A DNA stretch of 64,000 bases. It comes from a virus. A model generated the notes under the pieces. That model was not told the DNA's origin. It made no database searches and saw nothing but the letters and a program-made list of their open reading frames with translations. Positions 10,043-10,663 of this stretch are shown here, piece by piece. The number at the start of each line of letters is the position of its first letter. The first letter of the stretch is position 1. The stretch is from the IMG/VR virus record IMGVR_UViG_3300045988_075249, positions 1-64,000 of that record, one strand, 5' to 3'. Position numbers and translations under genes: made by a program.

Positions 10043-10663
10043 GAAAATAGAATAACTTAGATATGGCTATAATGCAACTCAGTGAAGACACAACGTCATG
10101 TGGCTGAGAAACCCAATCCGAGCTTAGGCTGGGAGAATCGGATAATGGAGGATACCCCAACCATCCGTAATGGGCTTTAATGGTGACATTAGAGTTCTCG
10201 TGGTCGAATGACCGGCTCCTAGGAGGGTTGTGCTGACATAATCGCATCTAAAAACACTGTCTTATCGCTCTCGCAATAGACGCCCCTGTGGGGAATAATC
10301 CAAGTTAGGTTAAAGTGTGGCAACTTTGGCAATCCTTGGAAATGCCAACAAGAGAGTTTGCACTTGAACCAGAGAAATCTGGGTATAAGATAAGGTCATG
10401 ATCTGAGTAGCCCAAATGTGCAAAGACTTTGATGATTAGATAATAAGATATTGCTTGTTCTAAAATCAAATTTCTGAATGACGGGTGAAAGGTAAGGGTA
10501 ATCAATCCCTTTTGAGAAATGGAACAAAAGTTCTGGGGCAAGAAGTTAGAGGTCGCTCCTCGAAGCTCAGACTTGTCTCCTCAATGGTTGAATATAGATG
10601 AAGATTAAACAGTTGGTAGGGCGAAGGCCCGCATTATAGTTATATCTAAGTTATTCTATTTTC
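10043..10663 (+). other. 621-bp non-coding element bounded by perfect 22-bp inverted repeats (gaaaatagaataacttagatat / atatctaagttattctattttc), inserted between the two tRNA-Gln genes. Candidate large structured ncRNA (ROOL/GOLLD-like) or MITE-like element
   Basis: The inverted repeats at 10043-10064 and 10642-10663 are seen in the sequence. No ORF longer than 80 aa without stops; the six-frame ORFs here are short and overlapping. Confidence 0.45.

Follow-up and report, generated by a model that had tools for sequence, protein, structure and literature searches.

What separates two neighbouring tRNA-Gln genes in a viral tRNA array? In positions 1 to 64,000 of the IMG/VR virus record IMGVR_UViG_3300045988_075249 (the window, whose coordinates are used throughout), tRNA-Gln(UUG) and tRNA-Gln(CUG) are held apart by an element at 10043-10663 that begins and ends in long inverted repeats. 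A first-pass annotation, made from the letters alone, offered two readings of it: a large, ornate non-coding RNA closed by a terminal helix, of the ROOL or GOLLD kind, or a non-autonomous, inverted-repeat mobile element. We find that 10043-10663, read on the + strand, is almost certainly a full-length ROOL RNA (Rfam RF03087), on the strength of its sequence. Overall, we consider it very probable that the window carries a complete, intact ROOL gene whose RNA would be co-transcribed with the tRNAs, released by tRNA processing and able to form a cage.

Identity of the element

A scan of the window against all of Rfam aligned the ROOL covariance model to 10054-10649, untruncated over model positions 1-574 of 574 and on the + strand only, at 350.3 bits (E = 3.3e-80; the gathering score is 99.1). 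When the model alignment was parsed, 133 of 159 consensus pairs (84%) were canonical and 162 of 191 highly conserved positions (85%) were matched. All five conserved ROOL blocks are present, namely CAAUAGACG, UUCUGAAUG with the GUGAAA that follows it, GUAAUCAAUCC, GCUCAGAC and GUAGGGCGAAGGCCC. As a test of the structure independent of Rfam, the window copy was aligned with 13 further ROOLs from IMG/VR and GTDB, and RNAalifold recovered 113 pairs from the 14 sequences, 91 of them with compensatory double changes and with a covariation term of -28 kcal/mol. The large ornate RNA with a terminal helix that had been suggested is specifically a ROOL, present over its full length. Its nucleotide similarity to the ROOLs of cultured phages is confined to a 69-nt stretch of the core: a DNA search of 50,697 cultured-phage records returned only this match, 81% identical, in Enterococcus phages, and the element therefore has no close cultured relatives.

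The chance that the element is instead some other large structured RNA (GOLLD, a group I or group II intron, another ribozyme) or a small protein gene appears negligible. Its size and tRNA context would fit GOLLD as well, and GOLLD resembles ROOL in being a large, ornate phage RNA that lies beside tRNAs and forms RNA-only cages, although it has another fold and assembles as a 10-14-mer (PMC12286853). However, when 9900-10800 was searched with the full set of 4227 Rfam families at E<=10, ROOL and tRNAs were the sole matches, neither GOLLD nor an intron appearing, and the GOLLD model (RF01998) had no match at its gathering score across the window, which disposes of the second RNA family named in the first-pass annotation. 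The absence of a credible interior open reading frame (ORF), also claimed there, holds: the longest ORF fully inside the element encodes 78 aa on the minus strand from a TTG start, none has a plausible start, and a 112-aa minus-strand ORF extends through a tRNA-Gln gene.

The element fits closely between its neighbours. Upstream, tRNA-Gln(UUG), with an encoded CCA, occupies 9960-10033 (+; ARAGORN, and 61.8 bits with the Rfam tRNA model) and is followed by the spacer CTGTACCTT (10034-10042, +), which is not found in the sister phages L001-L004 discussed below. Downstream, the spacer TTTAT (10664-10668, +), whose first two T are specific to ROOL-bearing phages and whose TAT is common to the empty site, leads into tRNA-Gln(CUG) at 10669-10743 (+; ARAGORN, and 57 bits). 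The intervening 9 and 5 nt agree with the distances previously described. A locally raised GC content had also been reported, and this is true in comparison with the window (41.7% in the element and 43.8% in its core, against 37.2%) and untrue in comparison with the tRNA array as a whole (42.5%); the arms of the terminal stem and the linker described below have about 25% GC. The single-sequence fold, predicted at -207 kcal/mol, is far more stable than those of shuffled sequences (z = -6.75).

A repeat finder placed the arms of the inverted repeats at 10043-10075 and 10631-10663, 33 nt that are 94% complementary as DNA and perfect over the outer 22 nt, as annotated. The 22-mer has only two sites in the window at up to three mismatches, against a chance expectation of 0.01, and none of 100 shuffles gave two. 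As + strand RNA, the same arms form 33 contiguous pairs, 31 Watson-Crick and two G-U, with no mismatch; the two mismatches of the DNA-level repeat are 5'-GG opposite 3'-UU, which would be C-A mismatches on the other strand. The inverted repeat is the closing stem of ROOL, P1, and at 33 bp it is unusually long, the Rfam consensus having 16 bp and most of the homologues sampled about 13-20 bp. Within its 5' strand (10043-10075, +), P1 as defined in the Rfam model corresponds to the innermost 16 nt, 10060-10075, to which a further 17 nt are added on the outside; the 3' strand (10631-10663, +) pairs with the whole. Across lineages the length of P1 ranges from about 13 to 33 bp with pairing retained: L132-type ROOLs (L numbers are our handles for contigs, loci and strains) have a homologous 33-bp stem with nine compensatory double changes relative to the window, L054-type stems have about 32 bp, those of L079 and L094 about 23-27 bp, and those of L022, L035, L051 and L068 13-19 bp. 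Covariation is seen with L132-, L054-, L079-, L022- and L035-type stems, and in strain L108 one G-C pair has become G-U through a C-to-U substitution in the 3' arm. This covariation, together with the change that preserves pairing through G-U, argues for selection on a + strand RNA helix and not on the DNA ends of a transposon.

Inside the element, a hairpin loop, UGGCA at 10318-10322 (+), is complementary to a single-stranded UGCCA at 10343-10347 (+). In the 14 aligned ROOLs, 92.9% of the cells of this contact are paired, with double changes at three of the five pairs; its covarying forms are UGGC/GCCA, UGGU/ACCA, UAGC/GCUA and UAGU/ACUA. None of 500 shuffles reached its score, and slid controls paired at 9-60%. 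By analogy with solved ROOLs, we infer that UGGCA:UGCCA is the kissing-loop or pseudoknot contact of the family, that is, the intermolecular bridge that was first suggested by covariation and then shown to be intermolecular by cryo-electron microscopy (PMC12286853). An A/U-rich variable linker at 10420-10475 (+; 25% GC) corresponds to the long unpaired loop or insert region of the model; in L111, the most divergent strain, it holds most of the substitutions and the single 1-nt indel. The equivalent linker of solved ROOL cages is disordered and lies inside the cage (PMC12286853).

Presence, absence and mobility

Relatives of the phage were retrieved via the AAA-ATPase gene at 11425-12546; the gyrase genes gave nothing of use. 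The sister contigs are IMGVR_UViG_3300045988_084596, _080502, _091188 and _081499. The sister phages L001-L004 share 81% identity with the window in the ATPase and about 80% nucleotide identity, and have the same tRNA order around the site, their arrays being collinear with that of the window save for indels of individual tRNA or transfer-messenger RNA (tmRNA) cassettes. In all four, the two tRNA-Gln genes lie 3 nt apart with no ROOL between them. Homology with the sisters by blastn ends at window position 10033 and restarts at 10666, and direct reading gives CCA/TAT/ACCGC for the empty site against CCA/CTGTACCTT-ROOL-TT/TAT/ACCGC for the window. A search for empty sites in related phages had been proposed with the first annotation, and it found one that is exactly empty. 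Within 10 kb of the ATPase gene, a scope short of the full-length contigs, no ROOL was found in L001-L021 by nhmmer, or by Rfam for the loci scanned, and three ROOL sequence patterns had no match in the L001-L021 contigs. Among the patterns tried, TTCTGAATG-N-GTGAAA was too loose, the addition of GTAATCAATCC made it too strict (one hit), and an intermediate pattern worked.

Sharp presence and absence of this kind is also what a transposon would leave, and we weighed whether the element is a non-autonomous transposon resembling a miniature inverted-repeat transposable element (MITE), with terminal repeats recognised by a transposase, that inserted between the tRNA-Gln genes. Like a MITE, it has long, near-perfect terminal inverted repeats, no ORF and a length of about 0.6 kb, and it is present in one genome and absent from related ones, the extra segment of 632 nt (10034-10665) standing in the window where the sisters have CCA/TAT/ACCGC. 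We nonetheless regard this origin as highly improbable, and the mobile-element half of the first-pass annotation did not survive. The whole interior is a full-length ROOL RNA, and the repeat is its covarying P1, with G-U pairs that mismatch as DNA. Neither target-site duplications nor identical copies at other sites, both of which had been suggested as things to look for, were found. The flanks CTGTACCTT and TTTAT, set against the empty site CCA/TAT/ACC, leave at most a trivial TT, and the element has one copy in 64 kb. An exact search with the 22-nt end gave no match in IMG/VR and four metagenome contigs in JGI/ENA, namely ULOF01056474, OGXQ01004860, CDYK01042432 and ERZ1673746 NODE-1291, all of the same phage: they are 95-100% identical to the window over kilobases and have the element between the same two tRNA-Gln genes. 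ROOL is 97-100% identical across the window and these four contigs, and all five strains of this phage carry one copy only, fixed at the same site. Finally, ROOL is syntenic with tRNA-Gln(UUG) across its clade.

Was ROOL, then, gained by this phage or lost by its sisters? The ROOLs most like that of the window are those of L022/L197/L266 (207 bits), L268 (196), L149 (194) and L140 (185), followed by L272 (175), L133/L263 (171) and L262 (169). In at least ten contigs of the clade (the window, L022/L266, L133, L035, L149, L274, L272, L262, L269 and L263), tRNA-Gln(UUG) lies 9-600 nt upstream of ROOL, and several clade phages have the array ATPase and a 150-nt element, described below, in common with the window. 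The order differs at a fine scale: L022, L133 and L035 have tRNA-Gln(CUG) and the 150-nt element ahead of ROOL, and the window has them behind it. Because the synteny of tRNA-Gln(UUG) and ROOL is conserved, loss in the sister species is the simpler account, and the sequences suggest that ROOL was probably lost in the sister phages. The differing order means that a move of the cassette, or its re-acquisition, is a possibility too, although one to which we give the smaller weight.

On that view, the element is a genuine ROOL but not an ancestral one, having been acquired recently, as a portable cassette, by recombination with another phage at the junction of the two tRNA-Gln genes. We find this rather unlikely. 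It would account for the lack of ROOL within 10 kb of the ATPase gene both in the sisters and in the next outgroup (L005-L017), for the failure of the three ROOL patterns to match any sister or outgroup contig, and for the varying position of ROOL among L022, L133, L035 and the window. Moreover, the long P1 is like that of the L132 and L054 types, which come from apparently unrelated phages, while the core is nearest the short-P1 L022 type, and the tRNA arrays of these phages are visibly mosaic. However, the closest ROOLs (L022/L197/L266, L149, L133, L272, L262, L274 and L035) are all located 9-600 nt downstream of tRNA-Gln(UUG), the occurrence of the array ATPase and the 150-nt element in several clade phages fits vertical descent with local rearrangement and loss, and no near-identical donor ROOL turned up in searches of IMG/VR, of JGI metagenomes and of GTDB genomes. 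If cassette exchange did take place, its traces would be the exact presence or absence of 632 nt, the shifting position and the way in which core and P1 differ in their affinities, and the 33-bp P1 would be a module peculiar to the lineage that serves processing or stability, such as an RNase III stalk. More generally, ROOL genes might be discrete, portable cassettes of phage tRNA arrays with boundaries that fall at tRNA ends, the flanking tRNAs acting both as RNA-processing signals and as recombination anchors by which a cassette could be gained, lost or shifted to an adjacent slot, a proposal that we consider doubtful.

Release and assembly

How would a ROOL RNA be made from such a locus? 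ROOL is frequent in tRNA arrays (PMC12286853, PMC12515178, PMC12990946), and in 29 of 48 other unique IMG/VR ROOL loci it occupies a gap of 456-635 nt flanked by two tRNA genes of the same strand, and at a further 12 a tRNA adjoins it on one side; the commonest arrangements are Trp-ROOL-Gln(UUG) and Met-ROOL-Ser(GCU). This survey supplies the lengths of the gaps between tRNAs, and the lengths of the spacers come from representative loci read directly, where P1 begins 1-9 nt past the upstream tRNA and ends 3-7 nt short of the downstream one. Whether adjacency to tRNA-Gln has a function, such as a link to recoding of TAG to Gln, was considered and is not claimed: the sisters have the same suppressor tRNA without ROOL, and in other clades ROOL lies between Met and Ser tRNAs or after a Thr tRNA.

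The nearest promoter-like site upstream of the window ROOL, at 9268-9296 (+), reads TTGAAA-17-TATAAT with a TG extension (TGaTATAAT) and agrees with 11 of 12 consensus positions, which suggests that it could function as a promoter. It belongs to a conserved 50-70-nt promoter-plus-leader repeat, D2/D3, which occurs in nine copies on the + strand (at 85, 1000, 1350, 1605, 2986, 5554, 9267, 17670 and 18386), each with TTGAAA-17-TATAAT and then ATATATAGAAAGTTAAGGAAAGG; the nine resemble strong promoters that have a leader and a ribosome-binding site in common, and are distributed across the tRNA array. Between 9268-9296 and ROOL there are a 66-codon ORF, tRNA-Val and tRNA-Gln(UUG), and no terminator-like site was found on the + strand of this interval. 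Another upstream motif, GCGTCTTGNNTTTAT, was dropped, as it is not enriched in the window (five matches against 1.9 expected).

We suggest that a polycistronic tRNA transcript, probably starting at the promoter-like repeat at 9268-9296, would include ROOL. Going by tRNA biology, processing of the 3' end of tRNA-Gln(UUG) (at about 10033/10034) and cleavage by RNase P at the 5' end of tRNA-Gln(CUG) (10668/10669), which would set the 3' end of ROOL, should yield an RNA of about 635 nt. The 33-bp P1 would then clamp the ends of the RNA together and shield them from exonucleases. We lean, by analogy, towards release by tRNA processing of this sort. In rRNA operons, long inverted repeats around 16S and 23S rRNA are cut by RNase III, and RNase P frees the spacer tRNAs. 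The rRNA stalks are comparable in that a long helix joins the ends of a large structured RNA in a polycistronic transcript punctuated by tRNAs; however, the likeness is one of biogenesis only, in that RNase III cleavage of ROOL is hypothetical and P1 of ROOL is part of the mature, solved structure.

To our knowledge, ROOL is among the few natural RNAs that form a closed, protein-free cage larger than the ribosome. The ROOLs env-120 (PDB 9MDS) and that of Enterococcus faecalis (9J3T) are octameric RNA-only cages, and that of Ligilactobacillus salivarius (9J6Y) is a hexamer (PMC12286853, PMC12990946). The window RNA has the helices, the conserved blocks, the loop-strand contact, the A/U-rich linker and the P1 of these solved ROOLs. 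By the same route, flat monomers joined by kissing loops and A-minor contacts would assemble by themselves, with no protein, into a closed homo-octamer (possibly a hexamer) about 28 nm across, with P1 directed outward and the A/U-rich linker inward. That the window ROOL assembles into such a cage we consider likely, again by analogy. ROOL cages accept fusions at the 3' end, a pre-tRNA among them, and display them radially (PMC12286853, PMC12515178, PMC12990946); assembly should therefore accommodate a P1 of 33 bp, which as an A-form helix measures about 9 nm.

Several points weigh against a complete, functional and cage-forming ROOL. In the alignment to the model, 26 of the 159 consensus pairs, most of them belonging to two variable helices, are non-canonical or gapped, so that competence for assembly is assumed. 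In strain L109 (ROOL at 4555-5192) a 9-nt deletion, corresponding to window positions 10317-10325, removes the UGGCA loop; the deletion may be an artefact of assembly or natural variation and, if real, would make the contact dispensable or the L109 copy defective. The idea that P1 is an RNase III substrate, in the manner of rRNA processing stalks, is pure conjecture. Lastly, the sisters without ROOL at this locus indicate that it is not essential for this type of phage. A decaying, non-functional ROOL relic, persisting between two tRNA genes, might be expected to look like this, with sister phages living without it, one strain deleted in a conserved loop and 16% of consensus pairs non-canonical. 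Yet the match is full-length and 3.5 times the gathering score, P1 is perfect, changes between strains either leave the structure as it is (G-U) or lie in the variable linker, and neither the conserved blocks nor the covarying kissing contact is damaged; we consider a relic very unlikely and an intact ROOL the better reading.

As to what an intact ROOL cage might do, the persistent embedding of the gene in phage tRNA operons leads us to guess, as little more than speculation, that during infection it acts on the metabolism of tRNA or of translation-related RNA, as a scaffold or container made of RNA. Reviews likewise offer speculation only, on storage or inhibition of embedded tRNAs by GOLLD and on condensates.

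The source phage and its tRNA array

The array that holds ROOL comprises 30 tRNA genes and a tmRNA on one strand (ARAGORN, in the window), and all genes of the window are on a single strand. The encoded proteins include GyrB/GyrA, PhoH/PIN and a DnaE-type polymerase that is 42% identical to its counterparts in Enterococcus and Bacillus SPbeta-like phages, and GTDB genomes with the same ROOL core are exclusively gut or rumen Bacillota. The source is an uncultured, apparently TAG-recoded phage whose host is probably among the Bacillota, an assignment that stays weak because none of the GTDB ROOLs, all of them from Bacillota, is close to the window copy. Such a habitat would match that of known ROOLs, the tRNA arrays of gut and rumen Bacillota phages (PMC12286853, PMC12990946).

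TAG appears to be a sense codon in this phage. The DnaE-type polymerase ORF ends at a TAG (62905-62907), and its in-frame continuation gains an HHH_6 domain from profile position 23; further genes with in-frame TAGs are found at 14875-15996, at 58978-59955 and from 55888 onward. A suppressor tRNA(CUA) gene is located at 18859-18933, and similarity to the other tRNAs of the phage gave no assignment of its identity. The phage-encoded tmRNA (7487-7802, +) has the tag DNDYFENYLAA; some sister contigs also have a tmRNA, while in others ARAGORN called a divergent, lower-scoring copy or none, which illustrates a cassette-like turnover of the array.

The array contains several unusual genes. A probable type-II tRNA-Tyr(GUA) at 11309-11393 (+) is missed by ARAGORN and is barely over threshold in Rfam (32.4 bits), tRNA-Ile(UAU) at 1101-1195 (+) has 95 nt, about 20 nt more than the array's other class-I tRNAs, and a 40-nt unit is duplicated in tandem at 3874-3953 (+) with 98% identity. 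A tRNA-like gene of 119 nt at 10916-11034 (+), missed by ARAGORN and scoring 50.9 bits with the Rfam tRNA model, has normal acceptor, D and T arms, but its anticodon stem-loop has 57 nt, forming two hairpins, where the 11-nt core would normally be. Similar genes occur in L149 (about 4856-4975) and L021 (11129-11241). The window gene could be an intron-containing tRNA or a tRNA-like RNA with an expanded anticodon domain.

The 150-nt element mentioned above, at 10745-10900 (+), is a conserved non-coding sequence directly 3' of tRNA-Gln. It was also found in L001-L004, L022/L023/L197 (12973-13130), L035 (13734-13890), L046, L020 (15778-15920, where it is 3' of the suppressor tRNA), L038, L133 and L014, and its 3' half in L005-L015. 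Its conserved blocks are AAAGAGUGG, CCUUUGG, CACAC and AGGUU..AACCU, and RNAalifold on 12 sequences gave three helices with eight of 16 pairs compensatory. It matched nothing in Rfam at E<=5 and is a candidate for an unannotated small RNA of phage tRNA arrays. Rfam matches in related loci, likewise inside tRNA arrays, were a partial OLE RNA in L022 (19668-19751; model 439-592, 53.5 against 50 bits) and a RAGATH-33 RNA in L020 (12797-12909; 137.9 bits).

Of three adjacent genes at 19955-24294 (+), the first encodes a 507-aa phrog_850 'RNA-binding protein' (DUF2828 and DUF7788), and the other two, which overlap by 20 nt in different frames, encode proteins homologous to major vault protein (MVP). 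In the first MVP-like ORF the Vault-repeat match is weak and below threshold; the second has a Vault_3 repeat, shoulder and cap-helix and matches residues 478-815 of rat and human MVP (E = 1e-12). The ROOL-less sisters also carry at least the phrog_850 gene and the start of the MVP-like region. A preprint (10.1101/2023.11.10.566534) reports MVPs of human gut phages.

The kind of system described here is already known, and what this locus adds is incremental: a long P1, an exact presence or absence relative to a sister phage, and synteny with tRNA-Gln(UUG). All three are useful for experiments on ROOL. Two phage species about 80% identical, one with the 632 nt that hold ROOL and the other exactly without them, amount to a natural 'knock-out' pair. 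With typically 1-9 nt to spare between ROOL and same-strand tRNAs, biogenesis by tRNA processing is directly testable. Finally, a P1 of 33 bp, twice the consensus length, shows how widely the outward stem can vary, which is relevant to the use of ROOL cages as display scaffolds.

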